A stretch of DNA of 36,875 bases, taken from the IMG/VR virus record IMGVR_UViG_2721755724_000003. One strand, given 5' to 3'. Position 1 is the stretch's first letter. Every line of letters begins with the position of its first letter. This DNA comes from a virus. Taxonomy: Duplodnaviria > Heunggongvirae > Uroviricota > Caudoviricetes. The notes beneath the pieces were generated by a model, which was given only the letters and a program-made list of their open reading frames with translations, searched no databases and was not told the DNA's origin. Shown here piece by piece: positions 8,830-35,740 of this stretch. The translations under genes were made by a program, and so were the position numbers.

Positions 8830-10002
8830 TTACGCGCTGACCTGGCTGGCGAAATTCACCAGGTACTGATCGGTGATGCGCTGACGCAGCATCAGGTTTT
8901 CAAGTGGCGGCACTGGCGTGTAGTCGTAGTCGATGGTGAGTTTTCCGGCTTTCAGCGTGTCTTTGTCGTTCACCGACTCATCCAGCCAGCAATCACCACC
9001 AATGAGATAGCCCTGACTGACCAGGCTGCGCATTTTGGCGCGGATACCTTCGATAATGTCGCGGGCCAGCGACGGGTTAAGCGGTTTATCCACCGCCCAC
9101 ATGTGTGCTTCTGCCATCGTGTCCATCAGCACCTGCGCCGTGCGGGTGTAGTTTTCGAAGGCAAAGAGCGGGTCATCACTCAGGCAGCGGGAACCCCAGA
9201 AGCGGAAACCGTCTTTACGCACAAGCGTGGTGACGTCGTTCTGGTTCAGCAGACCTGCATCGGTTGCCGGGTCCTGCAGATCCCAGAACACATCTGCAGA
9301 AATTCCGGTGACACCGTTCACGCCCACGTTGGACAGGCTTTTGTGCCATCCGGTCTGCTCGTCAATTTTGGCGCGCAGACCAAGCGCACGGGCGGTGGCA
9401 TATGCCGTTGCTTCGGCATTCAGCACCGTGTCCCAGCCAGTAAAGTCAGGCCAGATCAGCATCCCTTCGCGCTGGCTGAAGTTTTCGCGGTAAGTGATCG
9501 CCTCCTGCACTGTCTTGCAGCCATACGCTGACAGGTAAGCAAATCCACGCAGGCTTTGCGCCACGCTCAGCAACTCAGTAGCTACCGCCTTGGTGTCGTG
9601 GCCTGGCACGCCGAGAATGCGCGGTTTAACGCCGAGCTGTGACTGGGCAGATAACAGGGCTTTCATACCTGTTTTTTTACCTTCAGCAGTCACTGCGCCG
9701 ATGATATTGGTCGTGGTTTCGTCTTCCGTTTCACCCTGCGGCACACGCACAACAATGGTCACGGGTTTTGCCTGGTCAGCGATGGCATCCAGCGAACGGG
9801 CCAGAGTACCGGACTCACCCGCTTTACCGCTGGCAGTCAGCACATCAGTGATCAGCACGGGTTTATTAAGAGGAAACATTTTTGCATCGGCATCATCGCC
9901 CGTGCAGACCATACCCACGATGGCGGTGCTCACCGTGGTAATAGATCGGGTGCCTTCGTTGACTTCAACAACGCGCACCCCGTGGTGGTAATCCTGAGCC
10001 AT
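8830..10002 (-). CDS. FI: contractile tail sheath protein (P2 FI-like)
   Basis: 390-aa ORF upstream of FII; P2 FI is about 396 aa. Confidence 0.85.
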
Positions 10003-10078
10003 AGTGGCGAACCTCCTGATTGGATTAGGCTTCGCCCTATGTTGAAGTGATTGTGCCTGACAAACAGCTAAGCGCAGT

Positions 10079-10096
10079 TGTACCGTTATTCACACA
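10079..10096 (-). promoter_or_regulatory. candidate Ogr-dependent late promoter element upstream of FI (TGT-N12-ACA)
   Basis: TGTaccgttattcacACA about 85 nt upstream of the FI start; the same dyad motif recurs upstream of O and V. Confidence 0.45.
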
Positions 10097-10144
10097 AAAT
10101 GACGGTATTTGTCTGCTTTCAGGGATAATCAAAATAAAGCTGAT

Positions 10145-10717
10145 TCAGGGAGATTTATTGCTCTTATTTGCCGGAAATTTTCGATAAATGGTAGAAACGC
10201 CTACATCAAAAATCAGTGCAATACGCTGTCTTGATTCTCCGGCCTCGAGTAAACGTCCAATCTGTGCCCACTGTTCAGTGGTCAACTTAGGACGGCGTCC
10301 ACCTACTCTGCCTTTAGCACGAGCTGCAGCCAGCCCTGCCCGGGTACGTTCAACTATCAGTTCGCGTTCCATTTCAGCCAGGGCACCCATGACATGAAAA
10401 AAGAAACGGCCCATTGGGGTACTGGTATCAATACTGTCAGTCAGGCTTCGGAAATTCACACCACGCTGGCGCAACTCTTCTATCAGCGTAACAAGATGCC
10501 GCATACTGCGCCCCAACCTGTCCAGCTTCCAGACAACCAGCGTGTCTCCTGCCAATAGTGTCCTGAGCAGTTTTTTAAGCCCCGGTCTGTCGGACTTAGT
10601 GCCACTGATTTTGTCCTCAAAAATCCGCTCACATCCCGCGCAGTTCAGCGCATTACGTTGCAAATCGGTGTTCTGGTCATTTGTTGACACGCGTACATAG
10701 CCAATAAGCATGATCAT
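10145..10717 (-). CDS. serine DNA invertase (Hin/Gin/Cin/Pin family)
   Basis: 190 aa; N-terminal GYVRVSTNDQ catalytic-serine motif, VVWKLDRLGRS, and C-terminal HTH; very close to Hin/Gin as I recall them. Confidence 0.9.
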   Translation of the reverse strand: MIMLIGYVRVSTNDQNTDLQRNALNCAGCERIFEDKISGTKSDRPGLKKLLRTLLAGDTLVVWKLDRLGRSMRHLVTLIEELRQRGVNFRSLTDSIDTSTPMGRFFFHVMGALAEMERELIVERTRAGLAAARAKGRVGGRRPKLTTEQWAQIGRLLEAGESRQRIALIFDVGVSTIYRKFPANKSNKSP

Positions 10718-10738
10718 CTCCCTGAATAAAAATAGGGG

Positions 10739-11065
10739 ATGATGCCAGTTAGCCGTAATCGCTGCATTTTCTTAAACGTTGGTTTTGGAGAGCGGTTACT
10801 GGAGGCTGATGGGTACTTTGAATTACCGGGAGGATTGCTGCTGCAATGGGGGCACGGCTCGATTCATGCGTCAAGTGCCATTATACAGTTTAAGAAGTCG
10901 TTTAACGTCACTCCGTTCATTGTACTGCCGCATAAAATCACAACTGATGGTCGGTATGTGACGTCATCTAATTATACCTTAACTAGCTTTAGCCTTTATG
11001 GATGGAATGGAAACGGCACGGTAAACAATATTGACAGCTATACGTATTTTGCACTCGGGATGTAA
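10739..11065 (+). CDS. silent alternative tail-fibre C-terminal cassette
   Basis: ORF begins inside the crossover site; encodes ...VGFGERLLEADGYFELPGG..., parallel to the H C-terminus (...LGLGEAAK...WFRLPGG...). It would be fused to the H constant part after inversion. Confidence 0.55.
   Translation: MMPVSRNRCIFLNVGFGERLLEADGYFELPGGLLLQWGHGSIHASSAIIQFKKSFNVTPFIVLPHKITTDGRYVTSSNYTLTSFSLYGWNGNGTVNNIDSYTYFALGM
10769..10794. repeat. gix/cix-like crossover site, left boundary of invertible segment
   Basis: TTCTTAAACGTTGGTTTTGGAGAG, resembling the Gin gix site; inverted relative to the site at 11867-11892. Confidence 0.6.
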
Positions 11066-11093
11066 GAGAAAGCCGCGTAGAGCGGCTTTTTAT

Positions 11094-11519
11094 TTAGGTT
11101 GAGGAGGGCCAAACAATATCTGGAGCGCTGGATACGTCCACCGCTTCCAGCGCATCAAGATAATCCAGCCATAAATTGTACTGCGTTAATTCATCATCTT
11201 TCAGGCGTCCAAGCACCGATTTGCCAGGCCACTGCTTACTGTTTATGTATTCGTTAACCTGATTAATCAATTGCTGCTTTTCCAATTCGGCTGCGGCAAT
11301 TTGTTCCTCATGAGTTGGTGGTGGAATATCAATCCATGCTGGCATTCCGTCGATGACACCTCTGTATTTTCCTTCTGGTGCTTCCTTCATAAATTCGGCG
11401 GCAACAGTGTCGTCAATTTCGATTCCATCATCGGGCCATTCGCCGGATTCCTGATAAGCGATTTTAAGCTCCACAGGGAAAAACGCATTTTTATCGGCAC
11501 TGAAAATATATTTCTGCAT
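11094..11519 (-). CDS. tail fibre assembly protein (P2 gpG / Tfa-like)
   Basis: 141-aa ORF immediately downstream of H; acidic N-terminal part typical of Tfa chaperones. Confidence 0.8.
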   Translation of the reverse strand: MQKYIFSADKNAFFPVELKIAYQESGEWPDDGIEIDDTVAAEFMKEAPEGKYRGVIDGMPAWIDIPPPTHEEQIAAAELEKQQLINQVNEYINSKQWPGKSVLGRLKDDELTQYNLWLDYLDALEAVDVSSAPDIVWPSST

Positions 11520-11521
11520 TT

Positions 11522-12928
11522 CTACCGTCCTATCGAAATATAACTGAATCTGTATTGCTGTGAGATATTACTGGTTGCCACACGCCACGCTGAATTACTG
11601 ATATGTTCAAAATTTACAGACAAAACCTGCGGGGCAGGATTCGACGGGTCTGACTGAACGGCATCAGACATAACACTGACTGAAACCATTGGCTGATTAG
11701 GGAATGGTATAGGGAAGTGTCCACTGATAAAGCGAGTCGTGTTTCCTGAAAAAGTGCCAAACTGAACAATATATCCACCTGGTAGCCTGAACCATCCCGA
11801 ACCAGAAGCGAATGCTCCCATATCCGGTATCTGACCTGAACCTGTTCCCACATCCCGTTTTGCCGCTTCTCCCAAACCAAGGTATGTGAGAAGACCAGCT
11901 ACATCCTTTCCACTCAAATTGGTAAGCGTATTGTCCAGCGGTTGTTTACCTGCCAGCGCATTAAGCATTGTCGTGGCAAAGTTCGGATCATTCCCCAGTG
12001 CCGCCGCCAGTTCGTTCAGTGTATCCAGTGCAGCAGGTGCAGAACCCACCATTCCTGCAATCGCCGATTTCACAAAAGCCGTAGTGGCAATCTGTGTATT
12101 GTTGACCGACTGCGCCGCCGTGGGGGCTGTTGGCGTTCCGGTGAGTGCCGGACTCGACAACGGTGCTTTTAGTGCCAGCGCATTGTTAATGGTGGTACTG
12201 AAATTCGGATCATTGTTAATGGCTGCGGCTATTTCTTTCAGCGTGTCCAGCGTGGCTGGCGCACCATTAATAAGGGCCGTCAGTGCCGCCTGTACAAACG
12301 CAGTGGTCGCAACCTGAGTGGTATTATTCCCCGCCGCTGGCGTTGGCGCTTTGGGGGTTCCGGTAAATGTCGGGCTGGCTTTTGGCGCGTACTGTGAATG
12401 CGGGTCCGGTGCGGCAAGATGTTTTGCCATCTGATCATCCGCGTACACCTTCAGCTCCAGTGCCTTGTCATCCACATACTTGCGGGTTGCCAGCACTACA
12501 GCAGGGTCGATTTTCAGGGTGATATTGTCCGTGCTGCTGGTAATCAGCACCATGCGCACGGTCTGAGTGCGCCCGCTACCTTCAGCCAGTTGCGGCTTAT
12601 AGCTTTCCGGGCAGTTGCCCACGGCAATCAATGCCCCGGACTCATCAAACAAGCCCACTTCACGTATCCACCAACCGCCCTCGTTTTCAGGGATCACCTG
12701 TTCGGCAATAATCTGGCTGCTGTTCTGCGGGTCGATATAAAGCATATTCAGCGCAGCCCGGCGTTTCTCATTTACCAGTGCCGTCTGCTTTGCGTCCGGC
12801 GTTGGCAATACTCCACCGCCATCGCCCACCGCCATATGGGTAATTTTTAGCGGCACACCGAGCGCGGCGGCGCTGGCAAGTTTCGCCGCGCCAATATCCG
12901 TCAGCAGGGTATAAAATTTTGTGCTCAT
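11522..12928 (-). CDS. H: tail fibre protein (P2 gpH-like) with invertible C-terminal segment
   Basis: 468-aa ORF between I and tfa; internal tandem-repeated NDPNF..TT..NALA.K.PL motif; crossover site at codons about 346-355. Confidence 0.85.
   Translation of the reverse strand: MSTKFYTLLTDIGAAKLASAAALGVPLKITHMAVGDGGGVLPTPDAKQTALVNEKRRAALNMLYIDPQNSSQIIAEQVIPENEGGWWIREVGLFDESGALIAVGNCPESYKPQLAEGSGRTQTVRMVLITSSTDNITLKIDPAVVLATRKYVDDKALELKVYADDQMAKHLAAPDPHSQYAPKASPTFTGTPKAPTPAAGNNTTQVATTAFVQAALTALINGAPATLDTLKEIAAAINNDPNFSTTINNALALKAPLSSPALTGTPTAPTAAQSVNNTQIATTAFVKSAIAGMVGSAPAALDTLNELAAALGNDPNFATTMLNALAGKQPLDNTLTNLSGKDVAGLLTYLGLGEAAKRDVGTGSGQIPDMGAFASGSGWFRLPGGYIVQFGTFSGNTTRFISGHFPIPFPNQPMVSVSVMSDAVQSDPSNPAPQVLSVNFEHISNSAWRVATSNISQQYRFSYISIGR
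11867..11892. repeat. gix/cix-like crossover site inside tail-fibre gene H, right boundary
   Basis: Minus strand reads TTCTCACATACCTTGGTTTGGGAGAA, encoding LTYLGLGEA in H; shares the TTGGTTT..GGAGA core with the 10769 site. Confidence 0.6.
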
Positions 12929-15398: not shown

Positions 15399-15416
15399 TG
15401 TATCAGTGCTGATACA
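15399..15416 (-). promoter_or_regulatory. candidate late promoter dyad upstream of V (TGT-N12-ACA)
   Basis: Near-palindromic TGTATCAGTGCTGATACA in the S-V intergenic gap. Confidence 0.4.
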
Positions 15417-21306: not shown

Positions 21307-21324
21307 TGTACCGACAACCACACA
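21307..21324. promoter_or_regulatory. candidate late promoter dyad in the O/P divergent region (TGT-N12-ACA)
   Basis: TGTaccgacaaccacACA, nearly identical in its half-sites to the FI-upstream motif; about 87 nt upstream of the O start. Confidence 0.45.
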
Positions 21325-21370
21325 AACCGCAGGCGGGGAAAGCCTTCATTCAAGGTTGTAGGTTTGTGCC

Positions 21371-23137
21371 ATGAACACCACACTGACACCCGCAGATCTC
21401 GATCCCCGTCGGCAGGCCATGCTGCTGTACTTTCAGGGATACCGCGTAGCCCGCATTGCTGAAATGCTGGGCGAGAAAGTTGCAACCGTTCACAGCTGGA
21501 AAAAACGCGACAAGTGGGGTGACTATGGGCCGCTGGATCAGATGCAGCTCACCACCGCCGCACGCTATTGCCAGCTCATTATGAAGGAGCACAAAGAAGG
21601 GAAAGATTTCAAAGAAATTGACCTGCTGGCACGCCAGTCGGAGCGCCACGCGCGGATCGGCAAGTTTAACAATGGCGGCAACGAAGCCGACTTAAACCCT
21701 AACGTCGCCAACCGCAACAAAGGGCCGCGCCGTCAGCCGGAAAAGAATGTTTTCACCGATGAACAGATTGAGAAGCTGGAAGAAATCTTCCATTCCTCCA
21801 TGTTCAACTACCAGCGCCACTGGTGGGAAGCTGGAAAAACCAACCGCATCCGTAATCTGCTGAAGTCACGCCAGATCGGCGCGACCTTTTACTTTGCCCG
21901 TGAAGCCCTGATTGACGCCCTGCTTACCGGACGTAACCAGATTTTCCTTTCTGCCAGTAAGGCACAGGCTCACGTCTTTAAGCAATACATCATCGACTTC
22001 GCCAAAGAAGTCGAGGTGGAGCTGAAAGGCGATCCGATGGTGCTTCCTAACGGGGCCACGCTTTACTTCCTCGGCACCAATGCCCGCACTGCCCAGAGTT
22101 ATCACGGCAACCTGTATCTGGATGAATATTTCTGGATACCGAAATTCCAGGAGCTGCGCAAAGTGGCTTCCGGTATGGCTATTCACAAAAAATGGCGACA
22201 AACCTATTTTTCCACGCCATCCAGCCTGACACACAGTGCTTATCCGTTCTGGTCTGGTGCGCTGTTCAACCGTGGGCGCAACAAAGCCGATAAGGTGGAC
22301 ATCGACCTGTCCCACAGCAATCTGGCCCCCGGCCTGCTGTGCGCAGACGGGCAATACCGCCAGATAGTCACCGTGGAAGATGCAGTGCGCGGCGGATGTA
22401 ACCTTTTCGACCTCGATCAGTTGCGCATGGAGTACAGCCCGGACGAATACCAGAACCTGCTGATGTGCGAGTTTGTGGACGATCTCGCGTCCGTGTTCCC
22501 GCTCAGCGAGCTGCAGGCGTGCATGGTGGACAGTTGGGAAGTCTGGAGCGACTTTCATGCACTGGCCCTGCGCCCGTTTGGCTGGCGCGAAGTGTGGATC
22601 GGTTATGACCCGGCAAAAGGTACGCAGAACGGCGACAGCGCCGGATGCGTGGTGGTGGCACCGCCAGCCGTGCCAGGCGGTAAGTTTCGCATTCTTGAAC
22701 GTCACCAGTGGCGCGGGATGGACTTCCGCGCCCAGGCTGACGCCATCAAAAAACTGACCGAACAGTACAACGTGACATACATCGGTATCGACTCAACCGG
22801 CGTCGGTCACGGGGTTTACGAGAACGTGAAAGCGTTTTTTCCTGCCGTCCGGGAGTTTGTCTACAACCCCAACGTTAAAAACGCCCTGGTACTCAAGGCC
22901 TACGACATTATTAGCCACCGCCGCCTGGAGTTTGACGCAGGGCACACCGACATAGCGCAGTCCTTTATGGCAATCCGTCGCGCCACCACTGCCAGCGGCA
23001 ACCGCCCGACCTATGAAGCCAGCCGCAGCGAAGAAGCCAGCCACGCCGATCTGGCCTGGGCAACAATGCACGCACTGTTTAATGAACCGCTGCAGGGCGA
23101 GTCCGCCAATACCAGCAATATTGTGGAGATTTTTTGA
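21371..23137 (+). CDS. P: terminase large (ATPase) subunit (P2 gpP-like)
   Basis: 588-aa ORF divergent from O; P2 gpP is about 590 aa. Confidence 0.85.
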   Translation: MNTTLTPADLDPRRQAMLLYFQGYRVARIAEMLGEKVATVHSWKKRDKWGDYGPLDQMQLTTAARYCQLIMKEHKEGKDFKEIDLLARQSERHARIGKFNNGGNEADLNPNVANRNKGPRRQPEKNVFTDEQIEKLEEIFHSSMFNYQRHWWEAGKTNRIRNLLKSRQIGATFYFAREALIDALLTGRNQIFLSASKAQAHVFKQYIIDFAKEVEVELKGDPMVLPNGATLYFLGTNARTAQSYHGNLYLDEYFWIPKFQELRKVASGMAIHKKWRQTYFSTPSSLTHSAYPFWSGALFNRGRNKADKVDIDLSHSNLAPGLLCADGQYRQIVTVEDAVRGGCNLFDLDQLRMEYSPDEYQNLLMCEFVDDLASVFPLSELQACMVDSWEVWSDFHALALRPFGWREVWIGYDPAKGTQNGDSAGCVVVAPPAVPGGKFRILERHQWRGMDFRAQADAIKKLTEQYNVTYIGIDSTGVGHGVYENVKAFFPAVREFVYNPNVKNALVLKAYDIISHRRLEFDAGHTDIAQSFMAIRRATTASGNRPTYEASRSEEASHADLAWATMHALFNEPLQGESANTSNIVEIF

Positions 23138-24199: not shown

Positions 24200-25261
24200 T
24201 TAATATTCAAAATTATTTTCTTCAATAGAGAACTCAATCCCTCGGGATAACTTATCAATATTCACATCAAATGCGATATCTGTTAATTCACCATCCTCGA
24301 TTTCATACATAACTTCAATTTCAATATCGAAACTAATCTCTTGAACTTCAGTTCGTGTGGTTGTCTCCATTGGAATCATTACTTTATCTTCGCTATCCCA
24401 ATACCCATTATTAAAGTCTGGACCAGAAACAGTAACTTCAAAATCTACAGAAACAGAGAAGGTCGCTAGACAATAATTATTGTCAATCTTAATTATTGAT
24501 GGTTCAAAGTCATCAATATTGACGACTTCAAATGAATCCAATTCAGCGTCTTCCCAAGTTGAAACGTTATATCCATCGGCATCATTGAGTTGGGCAATTA
24601 CGTCCGCTCTTATGTCTTCACGTTTGCTTTCGATAAACTGCATCAATTTATTACTTAATTCGTTTGTATGCGTATTGTATTCACCTAGAAACTTATCAAG
24701 TGAATCAATTTGATGAAGATTGTTTTTACCATCACAATAATTTTTTAAGTCACTATCCTCAGAAATGATATACACATCTTCATCATTAACAAATCGCTCT
24801 ACCGCAGCTAAAGTGATTGCATCAGGAAACTCACTTTTTTTCTTATTTTGCCCAAATGGTGGTTCTTTGCCAAAGTATTTATCTAAAACCTCATTAAGAT
24901 CTATCACTTCTATTGTAGCTAATTTGGCGTGACATCCTTTCAAAAAATCATCAAAAACTTTTTGTGCTGCTTCGTGAATTTCATGTTCGTTAAATTGCTG
25001 AAAAAAACCATGGAGCGGTCCATTATCAATACTATTCAAAAGCCTAGCTTTTCTTTGTACTGTGTTTATAGCCTGCAGAGCATCCTTTATTGATTCCTCT
25101 ATTTTACCTTTTACTTCTCTCTCTACAACTGTAGTTGTAATTAAGACTAAATCACCTTTCGCACATAATTCATGGAAAGCTTTAAATGCTACCCCCTCAA
25201 AATGAAGACCAGCCTTTACGTACGTTTGTGTGTCAATAAATACCTTATTTGTTTTAAGCAT
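24200..25261 (-). CDS. unassigned cargo protein, PIN-like N-terminal domain plus acidic C-terminal domain
   Basis: 353 aa, AT-rich; N-terminus carries PIN-like acidic positions (VFIDTQTY, LITTTVVEREV, YIISEDSDL); the C-terminal 130 aa or so are strongly Asp/Glu-rich. Confidence 0.55.
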   Translation of the reverse strand: MLKTNKVFIDTQTYVKAGLHFEGVAFKAFHELCAKGDLVLITTTVVEREVKGKIEESIKDALQAINTVQRKARLLNSIDNGPLHGFFQQFNEHEIHEAAQKVFDDFLKGCHAKLATIEVIDLNEVLDKYFGKEPPFGQNKKKSEFPDAITLAAVERFVNDEDVYIISEDSDLKNYCDGKNNLHQIDSLDKFLGEYNTHTNELSNKLMQFIESKREDIRADVIAQLNDADGYNVSTWEDAELDSFEVVNIDDFEPSIIKIDNNYCLATFSVSVDFEVTVSGPDFNNGYWDSEDKVMIPMETTTRTEVQEISFDIEIEVMYEIEDGELTDIAFDVNIDKLSRGIEFSIEENNFEY

Positions 25262-25728: not shown

Positions 25729-27306
25729 CTACAATACTTTTCTCTCGATGGTATTTTTAATGGTCAACATATCTTTAGGAATACTTTTTTTCCCCTCTAT
25801 ACGTATGGTAAACACAAAAAGAATAACGGCTGATCTCACAATTTTCATGAGTTGTAAGAGCTGTTTCTCAAACTTTTCTTTCTCAATAAATCTCACCTCA
25901 TCAAAAAATCCATAAGAATTATATAAATCAACTAACATGTCTTTCTCGTGAATAACTAACAGTTTATGTTCTAAATCATTCCTCCATTCTTTAAAAAAAG
26001 CAAGCTCACCATTTTTATCATTCAAATCCATAGCAATACTAAACAAACCCAGCAATCCTTTATTATTTATTTTGTTTATTTTAAGCTTTCTTTTTTCATC
26101 ACTAATCCGCCAGAAGTTATGAAAGTATATATGTCCTCTATCTGGTTTTAAATCAAATAATTGACACAGAGCAACTGCTATTTTATCCAAGATACCAAAG
26201 CAAGCTCTAAATGCAACCCTTAACTTCTCAACATTTTCATACAATATTTCTCCATTATACAATTCAGAATAACATACCTCCGAATCCTCATCAAAAAACT
26301 CACTATCAACCTTATATTCAAAAAACATTTTTCGTGCTAAGGAATACTCAGCTTTAAGTCTATTTAACACCATTTCCATTGGCACTATAAAATCACCAAA
26401 CACACCTTCCTCGGTGGTCGCAATAGTTATATTATCTTTAGATGACGCATAACAATTGCAATATAGCGAATGATCAGACAACATTAGATTATTATCTATA
26501 CAAAACCTCTGGTAGTTTGATAAAGTATCATACTCCTCCTGCGTGAGCCTTTCATCTGTACTTATATCCTCTATGCCATATACACATGATTCACTCAATA
26601 TACTTTCGTTGTACTTTATTTTTCTTTGAAGAGCAACCTTCCATGAAGGAAAACATTTCCCTGACTTTATTGCACACTCATAACCTCGAATAACTTCTTT
26701 AATCATTTTATATGTATATGTTGTAGATAATTCATTAAGCAATTCTAATGCCTCAGATCTGTTTACCCACGCCTGAGGAATTGAGTTATCAATAGATATT
26801 GCTTGTTCATAATAATCCATTGATTCAGATATACGATATTGTTTTTTTAATACATTAGCTAGATTAACTATTAAATCAGGGGGCACCCATCCATCTTCTT
26901 GTGAAAGTTTAAACGCTTTCCAGTAATTATTTTTTACATCATTCAGCTTAATGAAACTATCAATATCTGCATTGTCATTAGGATTAAAATCAAGAACTGC
27001 GCTCATTCCATTTGCCAAGTTATAGTAATATAAAGATTCTTTCATTATAGTCAGAAATTCATTTTTATTGTTTATAAAGATATTTAAGCCTTCCTCCGCT
27101 ATATTTTTTACATTACTAAAATTTCCGATATCAATAAGATTTCCGGCCAAATTAGATAATATAATTATTCTATTTTCTTTGATTGTATTTATCTCATCGA
27201 TACCGTTAAGAATATCCTTTACATTTTTATAGGCAGAATCAAATGAACCTGCATTAATAAGATCATCTACGAACCCCATTTTTGAAACAACATAGTTGAT
27301 ATCCAT
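25729..27306 (-). CDS. unassigned cargo protein, TPR-like N-terminal region plus C-terminal HEPN-motif region
   Basis: 525 aa, AT-rich; TPR-like stretch (YYEQAISIDNSIPQAWVNRSEALELL) and C-terminal EWRNDLEHKLLVIHE matching the HEPN Rx4-6H signature. Confidence 0.55.
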   Translation of the reverse strand: MDINYVVSKMGFVDDLINAGSFDSAYKNVKDILNGIDEINTIKENRIIILSNLAGNLIDIGNFSNVKNIAEEGLNIFINNKNEFLTIMKESLYYYNLANGMSAVLDFNPNDNADIDSFIKLNDVKNNYWKAFKLSQEDGWVPPDLIVNLANVLKKQYRISESMDYYEQAISIDNSIPQAWVNRSEALELLNELSTTYTYKMIKEVIRGYECAIKSGKCFPSWKVALQRKIKYNESILSESCVYGIEDISTDERLTQEEYDTLSNYQRFCIDNNLMLSDHSLYCNCYASSKDNITIATTEEGVFGDFIVPMEMVLNRLKAEYSLARKMFFEYKVDSEFFDEDSEVCYSELYNGEILYENVEKLRVAFRACFGILDKIAVALCQLFDLKPDRGHIYFHNFWRISDEKRKLKINKINNKGLLGLFSIAMDLNDKNGELAFFKEWRNDLEHKLLVIHEKDMLVDLYNSYGFFDEVRFIEKEKFEKQLLQLMKIVRSAVILFVFTIRIEGKKSIPKDMLTIKNTIERKVL

Positions 27307-34397: not shown

Positions 34398-34408
34398 GGT
34401 TGCTTCAT

Positions 34409-35740
34409 ATGAATAATGATATGACTTTTGAAAACAGAGATGAGTATAATAGAAAAATCATTGCTGAAAAAATAATAAGCTTACTCGAGTCCCCCTTAAA
34501 AATATCCCCTATTGTTATCGATGGGGACTGGGGTACCGGTAAAACCGAATTTTCAAAAAAATTAGCGGCATTGATTGAAAAAAATGAATCTGGGCATAAA
34601 GTAGTATATATTGATGCATTTACTGAAGATCATAATGATGCTCCCATACTTACTATAATGGCTGCAATAGTTGCATTATATCCAGAGAGTGAAAAGAAGG
34701 AATTAATATCAAAGGCATTACCAGCATTGAGATTTGGACTTAAAACTGTACTCAAAGCTGGCGCTGGGTGGATTTTAAAACAAAATGCAGATGATATTGC
34801 GGATGAATTCGAAGATGCTATTAAAGATGCGGCTAACTCAGCTATAGATGGTACTGTAGAAGCACTGCTTGATGATCATATTGAAGCAAAGAAACATTTG
34901 CTTGCTCTCAAGGAAGTACTTGCTGAACTAACTAGCGAAAATAAAATAACAATTATCATTGACGAACTTGACCGTTGTAAACCAAGCTTTGCCATCTCTA
35001 TCATCGAAAATATAAAACATGTTTTTGACACTGAAAATCTTAACTTCTTGTTAGTTGCTAACATCTCACAATTGAAAGCATCAATAAATCATATTTACGG
35101 TGCAGGTGTTGACTCAGAAAGATATCTTGATAAATTTATAAAATTCACTTACAGCCTGCCAGTGACTTTCACTGAAAACAATTACGATAAAATTTTGGCT
35201 TCGAACTCTCATTTTAGAATGCTATGTAACGAGTCTGAAAGACTAAAAGAAATTGGAGAAAGTAGTATTCATATAGTTCAAAAATTTATCGAACTAAAAG
35301 GCTTGTCGCTACGGGAAGTTGAAACCTTATCAAGATATCTAGAAATTTATCAAATTTTATCTCAAAATGAAATCAGCAATAAATTTATACCAGGCTATTG
35401 CTGTTATCGAACCCTTGCAGTAATTCTTTATTCGTTTGGTCGTGAACTGGCCCTTAACTACGTAGAAGATAAAATAGATGCACAATTAATAATCAATTTC
35501 TTCGGTGTTAATAGACTCCCATATCAGACAGATCAATATAACATCAACATCTACTATTATGCATTATTTGGTATAACTTATAAATATATGCCAGAAGGTT
35601 CTCCTTTACTTCCTTCTGAAAACGATGAAAAAAACAGATGGGCTGAAATAAGTGATTATCATATTTTAAAAGGAAATGCAGGTGTAGAAGACCCTGTTAG
35701 AATATTCAAAAACACCTTAAAAGTTTTCTTGCTCCAATGA
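34409..35740 (+). CDS. KAP-family P-loop NTPase
   Basis: Walker A GDWGTGKT, a YIDAF motif after it (KAP proteins have NAW-like motifs there) and Walker B IIIDELDRC; AT-rich; sits between cI and int. Confidence 0.7.
   Translation: MNNDMTFENRDEYNRKIIAEKIISLLESPLKISPIVIDGDWGTGKTEFSKKLAALIEKNESGHKVVYIDAFTEDHNDAPILTIMAAIVALYPESEKKELISKALPALRFGLKTVLKAGAGWILKQNADDIADEFEDAIKDAANSAIDGTVEALLDDHIEAKKHLLALKEVLAELTSENKITIIIDELDRCKPSFAISIIENIKHVFDTENLNFLLVANISQLKASINHIYGAGVDSERYLDKFIKFTYSLPVTFTENNYDKILASNSHFRMLCNESERLKEIGESSIHIVQKFIELKGLSLREVETLSRYLEIYQILSQNEISNKFIPGYCCYRTLAVILYSFGRELALNYVEDKIDAQLIINFFGVNRLPYQTDQYNINIYYYALFGITYKYMPEGSPLLPSENDEKNRWAEISDYHILKGNAGVEDPVRIFKNTLKVFLLQ

Follow-up and report, generated by a model that had tools for sequence, protein, structure and literature searches.

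How does an invertible tail-fibre segment that offers two alternative receptor-binding tips manage with a single tail fibre assembly (tfa) gene? The question is raised by a 36,875-nucleotide stretch of tailed-phage DNA (Caudoviricetes; IMG/VR record IMGVR_UViG_2721755724_000003), here called the window, in which a P2/186-like prophage carries a serine invertase, two crossover sites, the tail fibre gene H, one tfa gene and a silent alternative tip side by side. We refer to the constant N-terminal part of the fibre as Hc, to the variable C-terminus that H currently expresses as Hv, to the silent tip as Hv' and to the fibre made after inversion as H'. The answer that we favour, and weigh below, is that Hv' folds without the chaperone that its counterpart uses.

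The original prediction had placed a Hin/Gin-family invertase beside a segment of about 1.1 kb, and both protein domains and sequence identity agree with it. The invertase likely starts at MLIGYVRVS (position 10711) and then spans 188 aa, as in RefSeq, where it is listed as 'recombinase family protein'. It carries a Resolvase domain (PF00239, residues 5-137, E 1.2e-52) followed by an HTH_7 domain (PF02796, residues 140-183, E 1.4e-15), and at the amino acid level it is 78% identical to P7 Cin, against which it aligns over its full length, about 75% identical to Gin of SfMu and 59% identical to Pin of SJ46. Its N-terminus reads MLIGYVRVSTNDQ, which puts the active-site serine, expected near residue 9-10, at position 9 counted from the MLIGY start. 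By these comparisons the enzyme is a complete member of the Gin/Cin/Pin family. Its 5' coding region contains a putative Fis-dependent recombinational enhancer, in which 55 of 68 nucleotides (81%) are identical to the annotated enhancer of P7 cin, against 41 of 66 in the adjoining stretch; the same stretch encodes the conserved catalytic N-terminus.

We searched the window for crossover sites with the family consensus TTCTCNNAAACCNNGGTTTNNGAGAA, allowing up to 3 mismatches. Exactly two sites were found, compared with an average of 0.01 in shuffled sequence, and none of 100 shuffles held two or more. The two sites form the inverted-repeat pair I2, and both fit the Sandmeier consensus cited in PMC4134206, in keeping with the gix-like sites that had been proposed. 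Because their central dinucleotides are TT and AA, the sites lie in inverted orientation. The right one had been placed exactly, and the left one lies 2 bp to the left of the 10769-10794 first assigned to it. As also read beforehand, the right site falls inside H, where it encodes ..TYLGLGE.., and the left one opens a plus-strand open reading frame (ORF; 10739-11065) whose product, ..NVGFGE..YFELPGG, is related to the H terminus with its WFRLPGG. A system of multiple inversions with a third crossover site was considered and rejected, because the window has just two consensus matches.

Inversion of positions 10780-11879 (1,100 bp) in silico joins Hc in frame with the plus-strand ORF, as anticipated by the original prediction, through the junction TAC CTT GGT TTT GGA GAG (YLGFGE), and replaces the 468-aa H with a 444-aa product. 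The same rearrangement is present in deposited genomes. E. coli LZYWN_4 (locus L004) has this prophage in the flipped state; its sheath, tube and Tfa proteins are identical to those of the window, and its annotated 444-aa fibre H' aligns with the modelled fusion without gaps at 98% identity; an IMG/VR contig (locus L026) is in the same flipped state. The flipped junctions at these loci, TTCTCACATACC TT GGTTTTGGAGAG and TTCTCCCAAACC AA CGTTTATGAAAA, are exactly those predicted, and the recombinant junctions of L004 place the exchange at the central dinucleotide. Among 5,426 complete E. coli genomes, 30 carry the tip: in 15 the junction of invertase, site and tip is intact (OFF), and in 15 the match breaks at the crossover (window 10774-10776) and the tip lies under a full-length fibre gene (ON). 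The two orientations, which the original prediction had proposed to look for, were thus found in public genomes. From the junctions in LZYWN_4 and L026 and the even split among carriers, we take both orientations to be natural and their junctions to be site-precise.

The segment is almost certainly a Gin/Cin-type switch that swaps the receptor-binding tip of the fibre. In the mechanism that we propose, the serine invertase would act on the two inverted 26-bp sites, probably with the aid of an enhancer that lies within the 5' part of the invertase gene and is bound by Fis. In the present orientation the 468-aa H ends in Hv; its tfa comes next, and a hairpin, the likely terminator, closes the series. 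In the flipped orientation Hc would be joined to Hv', giving the 444-aa fibre with its stop codon directly before the same hairpin, and tfa and Hv would point in the wrong direction, with no recognisable promoter.

In some related loci the invertase gene is damaged or missing. A second P2-like lineage, represented by E. coli AR_0137 and Y5 (L007 3312-3419, L008 4751-4858), has an internally deleted invertase gene, in which the first ~95 nt, including the putative enhancer, are joined to the 3' end. Yet in this ~82% group, strains whose flanking proteins are otherwise identical show either orientation (OFF in 13, among them the more divergent EC7, and ON in 6). This points to another resident Pin-family invertase acting in trans; alternatively, the orientations were fixed before the invertase was deleted. 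Inversion in trans by another Pin-family invertase has been reported for EC958 Phi4 and for e14. Loci in a Kluyvera sp. (L019 3875-4300) and in an IMG/VR contig (L030 4676-4878) hold the tip and a single tfa with no invertase gene between segment and sheath, and one is frozen OFF and the other ON.

The gene content of the segment bears out the claim of a single tfa. Pfam identifies one Caudo_TAP gene in the segment, and tblastn found no second tfa elsewhere in the window, so that the two tips do not each have a U or U' gene of their own in the manner of Mu G and P1 C. In the present orientation tfa is co-transcribed with H. The silent tip and tfa converge, with just 28 nt between their stop codons, and this gap is occupied by a hairpin, which is kept in the diverged variant L008 and which likely ends the late operon after tfa in the present state and directly after H' in the flipped one. 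In the modelled inversion tfa becomes antisense and H' ends at this hairpin.

We found little that could drive tfa from its flipped position. A sigma-70 promoter scan of 10000-12100 returned 2 sites against 3.5 expected from shuffles, and no plus-strand sigma-70-like promoter that might serve tfa after inversion lay between the invertase and the left site. A weak promoter-like site on the minus strand (11564-11537), inside Hv, stands just upstream of tfa; such matches are no commoner than in shuffled sequence, and because the Hv-tfa cassette is nearly identical in its Salmonella copy, comparing the conservation of the site is uninformative. P2 late promoters use dyads of the type TGT-N12-ACA, and a scan for these found none within 10767-11892 or beside the invertible segment.

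Both tips match the Gp53-like_C family (PF21882), at 33.4 bits for the silent tip (E 7e-8) and 33.6 bits for Hv against a cut-off of 24.9, and share little besides the motif G(W/Y)F.LPGG..Q(F/W)G. For Hv', an AlphaFold2 run on a shallow 16-sequence alignment gave a mean predicted local distance difference test score (pLDDT) of 40 and was discarded; a more diverse 24-sequence alignment was used instead and gave a compact, self-contained, all-beta domain at pLDDT 85.6. Foldseek matched this model to AP22 gp53 (4mtm; template modelling (TM) score 0.80, root-mean-square deviation 2.1 Å, E 1.5e-4), to the foot of the R1/R2 pyocin fibres (6cl6/6ct8, TM 0.74-0.75) and next to H-type lectins, and PDB chains searched with the tip sequence yielded chance-level matches only. 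Hv' is thus modelled as a short, gp53-like foot with an H-type-lectin fold. Sibling gp53-like silent cassettes that have their own tfa carry a linker, AAKR(D/N)VGTGxxQIPDM, directly after the crossover motif GLGE. Hv' lacks it: RLLEAD stands in its place, and the tip, with 91 aa beyond the crossover, is ~20-30 aa shorter.

Five variants of the tip, at 82-100% DNA identity, are of equal length and free of indels, stops and frameshifts. Pairwise ratios of nonsynonymous to synonymous substitution (dN/dS) are 0.11-0.30, with dS up to 0.9, and Hv' is under purifying selection. Its annotation deserves a correction. RefSeq, through the Prokaryotic Genome Annotation Pipeline (PGAP), treats the silent cassette as a gene in its own right, with a 108-aa product called 'gp53-like domain-containing protein' that begins at ATG 10739, and dozens of database entries (P0001-P0015) are alike. 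The 108-aa ORF is probably an annotation artefact and no separate gene, because this ATG abuts a GGGG run and has no usable ribosome-binding-site spacing; the spacer next to the invertase and the crossover site make up its first 14 codons. In E. coli YZ22PE68 (L010 1062-3776), the same segment of tip, tfa and invertase forms the end of a lambdoid side tail fibre (stf) gene that lies downstream of lom, and the tip is ON. PGAP lists this fibre as a pseudogene 'missing C-terminus', probably having failed to recognise the fused tip.

E. coli, Salmonella, Klebsiella, Citrobacter and Kluyvera all show one layout, in which the tip is followed by the 28-nt hairpin and a single tfa on the opposite strand, and the tip occurs in P2-like, Mu/e14-like, lambdoid stf and DUF2612-type (remnant) tail modules. 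It is paired with at least four different partner cassettes of tip and tfa. The partner tfa products are of 141 aa (here), of 136 aa (37% identical) or of 190-194 aa with an extra Caudo_TAP_N domain, and one partner tip has a Collar fold; despite this variety, Hv' is 78-100% conserved. From the dN/dS values, the recurring layout and the differing partners, we conclude that the tfa-less tip is a conserved, selected cassette that pairs freely with its partners. The single-tfa asymmetry is a conserved and recurrent architecture, neither the result of decay nor peculiar to the window.

A scan of species-representative genomes found no relative. The closest relative of the tip outside invertible segments is a 190-aa fibre of Serratia marcescens, which lies after its baseplate genes and whose last ~75 residues are clearly homologous to the tip (48% identity); no Caudo_TAP gene or invertase lies within 4 kb downstream of it. 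Many distinct 191-aa fibres also end in an Hv'-type tip. Window positions 11500-11900, from the Hv-tfa cassette, are near identical in DNA to L012 4762-5162 of a P2-like prophage of Salmonella enterica, where the constant part of H differs (468 vs 496 aa for the two H proteins). This indicates a recent intergeneric exchange of the Hv-tfa cassette at the crossover site.

Why, then, is no chaperone gene placed behind Hv'? With moderate confidence we favour the explanation that the Hv' tip trimerises without Tfa. As a compact H-type-lectin foot that lacks the ~20-aa linker of tfa-bearing tips, Hv' would assemble unaided, and the phage would alternate between chaperone-dependent and chaperone-independent receptor-binding tips with different host specificities. 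We consider this the best reading because no promoter or dyad was found for the flipped tfa, because the Serratia relative has no tfa within 4 kb downstream, and because AP22 gp53 was a trimer when purified, in a study that mentions no chaperone. That the partner tfa genes are unrelated in type also speaks for independence from Tfa. With a little less assurance, we extend this to a fuller picture in which the 91 residues of Hv' are a chaperone-independent lectin-type tip that moves among tail modules by recombination at crossover sites, so that Tfa-dependent and Tfa-free states alternate.

Several points weigh against chaperone independence, which for this particular tip we only infer. Hv, the other gp53-like tip of the same segment, has a tfa, and one tfa lies nearby in every invertible locus seen with Hv', so that a shared or trans-acting role of Tfa is possible. 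The R1/R2 pyocin feet, of the same lectin fold, needed co-expressed chaperones for soluble yield (PMC6363177). Because chaperones were used for the pyocin foot but apparently not for gp53, a chaperone requirement cannot be read from the fold alone. The promoter-like site at 11564-11537 lies within the segment and hence would move with tfa; the Fis enhancer is a homology-based assignment; and 50,697 deposited phage records, searched with the tip by tblastn, gave no match, so that no isolated phage is known to carry it. A rival arrangement is one in which the single Tfa serves both tips, supplied in the flipped state by an unrecognised promoter within the segment, by antisense or read-through transcription, or by the tfa genes of other resident prophages. 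The constant presence of tfa, the promoter-like site directly upstream of it, the Gp53-like_C membership of both tips and the benefit that pyocin fibres draw from chaperones all point that way. We nevertheless regard a shared chaperone as unlikely, if worth keeping in view: partner Tfa proteins differ widely in identity and in Pfam architecture, and some partner tips have a different fold, yet Hv' keeps its conservation; promoter-like matches fall below the shuffle mean; neither the segment nor its immediate surroundings contain an Ogr-type dyad; read-through would be stopped by the hairpin that separates tip from tfa; and the Serratia relative does without any tfa in the 4 kb downstream.

Could the asymmetry instead reflect decay, with a mirror-image second tfa lost, flipped particles fibre-defective or non-infectious and the silent tip a remnant? 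Most sibling P2-like E. coli prophages do have two tfa genes in mirror image, the tip is rare among E. coli genomes, and it is missing from the deposited phages. Such a history is very improbable given the low dN/dS at dS of up to 0.9, the lack of any frameshift or stop in any variant, the identical compact layout across several genera and tail-module types, a 28-nt gap too small for a tfa remnant, and the many distinct 191-aa fibres that end in the tip. Slightly less probable still is that the alternative fusion mainly aids the lysogen, for instance by blocking adsorption of other phages, and is not primarily a switch of virion host range. A precedent exists in e14, where StfE2, made by Pin-type inversion and bearing a gp53-like C-domain, is reported to block T2 adsorption (PMC12529663), and several tip loci are prophage remnants with truncated or missing invertases. 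The locus studied here has another character: the prophage looks complete, H is built like a structural fibre gene and belongs to a late operon that depends on Ogr and stays silent in lysogens, and the sequence gives no indication of expression during lysogeny. Chaperone independence of Hv' remains the explanation that we prefer.

The setting of the switch is that of a P2-like phage. The window begins with the host genes ybjM and ybjL and continues into a prophage that looks complete, in which the ORF map and Pfam show the expected head and tail genes along with an integrase, a CI repressor of the 186 type and replication gene A; a prophage of E. coli APEC O18 is 99.9% identical to the window. 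On the minus strand the order is I, H (11522-12928), tfa/G, invertase, sheath FI (8830-10002) and tube FII, and the plus-strand ORF with the silent tip sits between tfa and the invertase. The ORF map, Pfam, RefSeq annotation and dyad positions together agree with the P2-like (Peduovirinae) tail-fibre operon, whose genes run V W J I H G - slot - FI FII E T U D. The series of H, tfa, silent tip with invertase, sheath and tube is therefore that of the P2 slot, and the Z/fun position that had been assigned to the segment is correct. Hc is the same in the ON-state protein of L004. Coordinates are collected in Table 1.

Table 1. Features of the invertible segment and its surroundings, in window coordinates
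Feature	Position	Strand	Remarks
Dyad TGT-N12-ACA, likely Ogr-dependent late promoter P_F	10079-10096		Precedes the sheath gene; marks where the Z/fun slot ends
Serine DNA invertase of the Gin/Cin/Pin family	10145-10717	minus	Pfam; identity to P7 Cin and SfMu Gin; RefSeq
Putative Fis-dependent recombinational enhancer	10626-10693	minus	In the 5' part of the invertase gene; aligns with the annotated P7 cin enhancer (nt 19-86)
Left 26-bp crossover site	10767-10792		TTTTCTTAAACG TT GGTTTTGGAGAG; strand exchange at 10779-10780
Hv', silent tip cassette (GFGERLLEADGYFELPGG...ALGM)	10781-11065	plus	94 aa; predicted short gp53-like H-type-lectin foot
Hairpin, likely bidirectional terminator	11064-11094		Inverted repeat I21; terminator-like site 11067-11091
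tfa/G, the only tail fibre assembly gene	11094-11519	minus	141 aa; Pfam Caudo_TAP, E 1e-33
Hv, currently expressed variable C-terminus of H	11522-11880	minus	gp53-like foot after linker AAKRDVGTGSGQIPDM; Gp53-like_C at H residues 381-468
Right 26-bp crossover site, inside H	11867-11892		TTCTCCCAAACC AA GGTATGTGAGAA; strand exchange at 11879-11880
Hc, constant N-terminal part of tail fibre H	11881-12928	minus	~350 aa; Pfam Phage_tail_fib at residues 1-150

Besides the likely P_F, dyads of the late-promoter type stand where P_V is expected (15399-15416, upstream of gene V) and, at 21307-21324 and 21365-21382, at the places expected for P_O and P_P in the divergent scaffold/terminase region. The window holds 9 such dyads against 9.9 expected by chance, so that only their placement is informative, and it is suggestive. 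A remnant of the same prophage occupies the same ybjL attachment site in E. coli EC596 (L024 4230-4957), frozen ON; its deletion removed everything from the invertase through most of gene D and joined a remnant of Hv to the 3' end of D and ogr.

The prophage also carries what looks like cargo. A plus-strand gene at 34400-35740, between the CI repressor and the integrase, encodes a KAP-family P-loop NTPase that matches the PADLOC candidate defence family PDC-S20 nearly end to end (E 1e-171). The interval between repressor and integrase is a known cargo hotspot of P2-like prophages. Two further genes on the minus strand, 24200-25261 and 25729-27306, are found between portal gene and replication region. 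The 353-aa protein has a PIN_12 domain, and the 525-aa protein has an LA2681-like HEPN domain and a weak, sub-threshold match to tetratricopeptide repeats, beyond which a PADLOC search of the two gave nothing specific. The pair could be an uncharacterised nuclease-type defence or toxin system.

What does the locus add? Tail-fibre inversion switches are textbook systems, and this one is of a known kind; its conserved tfa-less tip is a modest new part. Invertases in the Z/fun slot, inversion in P2-like E. coli prophages and gp53-like tips exchanged by Pin-type inversion have all been published, and the switch by itself adds little. The useful part is the asymmetry. Tfa is generally treated as obligatory for the tips of P2, Mu and lambda-type fibres, and the need for a matching chaperone complicates the engineering of phages, tailocins and delivery particles. 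If our reading is right, a conserved 91-aa tip found without a chaperone gene across at least four types of tail module would be a convenient, minimal, plug-in receptor-binding module. The tip would also be a natural test case for what makes Tfa necessary, with the linker AAKRDVGTGxxQIPDM, absent from Hv', as a candidate feature.

Set beside the classical switches, the locus follows the logic of Mu G and Gin. The Mu G segment is about 3 kb long and a mirror image, with Sv-U facing Sv'-U'. The arrangement here is likewise a constant fibre part, then a segment running from variable tip and tfa to silent tip, then the invertase, which is transcribed in the direction of the fibre gene with its 5' end beside a site; the 26-bp sites have a 2-bp exchange core, and the invertase is close to Gin of the Mu-like SfMu. 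The differences lie in the segment, which here measures 1.1 kb, has one tfa and carries a silent tip of 91 aa after the crossover. With the C segment and Cin of P1 and P7 the locus shares a 78% identical invertase, a 5' coding stretch homologous to the one in which the P7 enhancer is annotated, and exchange of the fibre C-terminus. In P7, however, the 3' end of cin abuts cixL, whereas our invertase gene has its 5' end towards the site, and the 4-kb P7 segment has U' as well as Ua/Ub where ours has a single tfa. The contrast with Mu and P1 that the original prediction drew is correct, because P7 carries both U and U', most sibling P2-like prophages have two tfa genes in mirror image, and published segments are described as mirror images.

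The tip itself has its best structural matches in AP22 gp53 and the R1/R2 pyocin foot, but at only 16-20% sequence identity; gp53 was apparently made without a chaperone and the pyocin foot with its own. The modularity of Tfa proteins (North et al. 2019) is covered in summary in PMC9608196. Neither the single-tfa layout nor this subclass of short, linker-less tips was described in the open-access literature that we searched.

The nearest kin are the Phi1, Phi2 and Phi4 prophages of EC958, the prophages of enteropathogenic E. coli (EPEC) E2348/69 and the P segment of e14, which share the prophage type, the Z/fun hotspot and the 26-bp sites. Inversion of E. coli prophage segments has been seen by PacBio sequencing and PCR (PMC4134206; PMC4272514; bioRxiv 10.1101/2024.10.15.618418), and the invertases of P2-like phages at the Z/fun hotspot have already been described (bioRxiv 10.1101/2024.10.15.618418). 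The prophage segments are reported as mirror images in which each allele has a cognate minor (tfa) gene (PMC4134206), and e14 has both tfaE and tfaP, with StfE2 a chimera bearing a gp53-like C-domain (PMC12529663). Whereas those segments pair every allele with a tfa in mirror image, the one described here joins a single tfa to a short tip without the linker.

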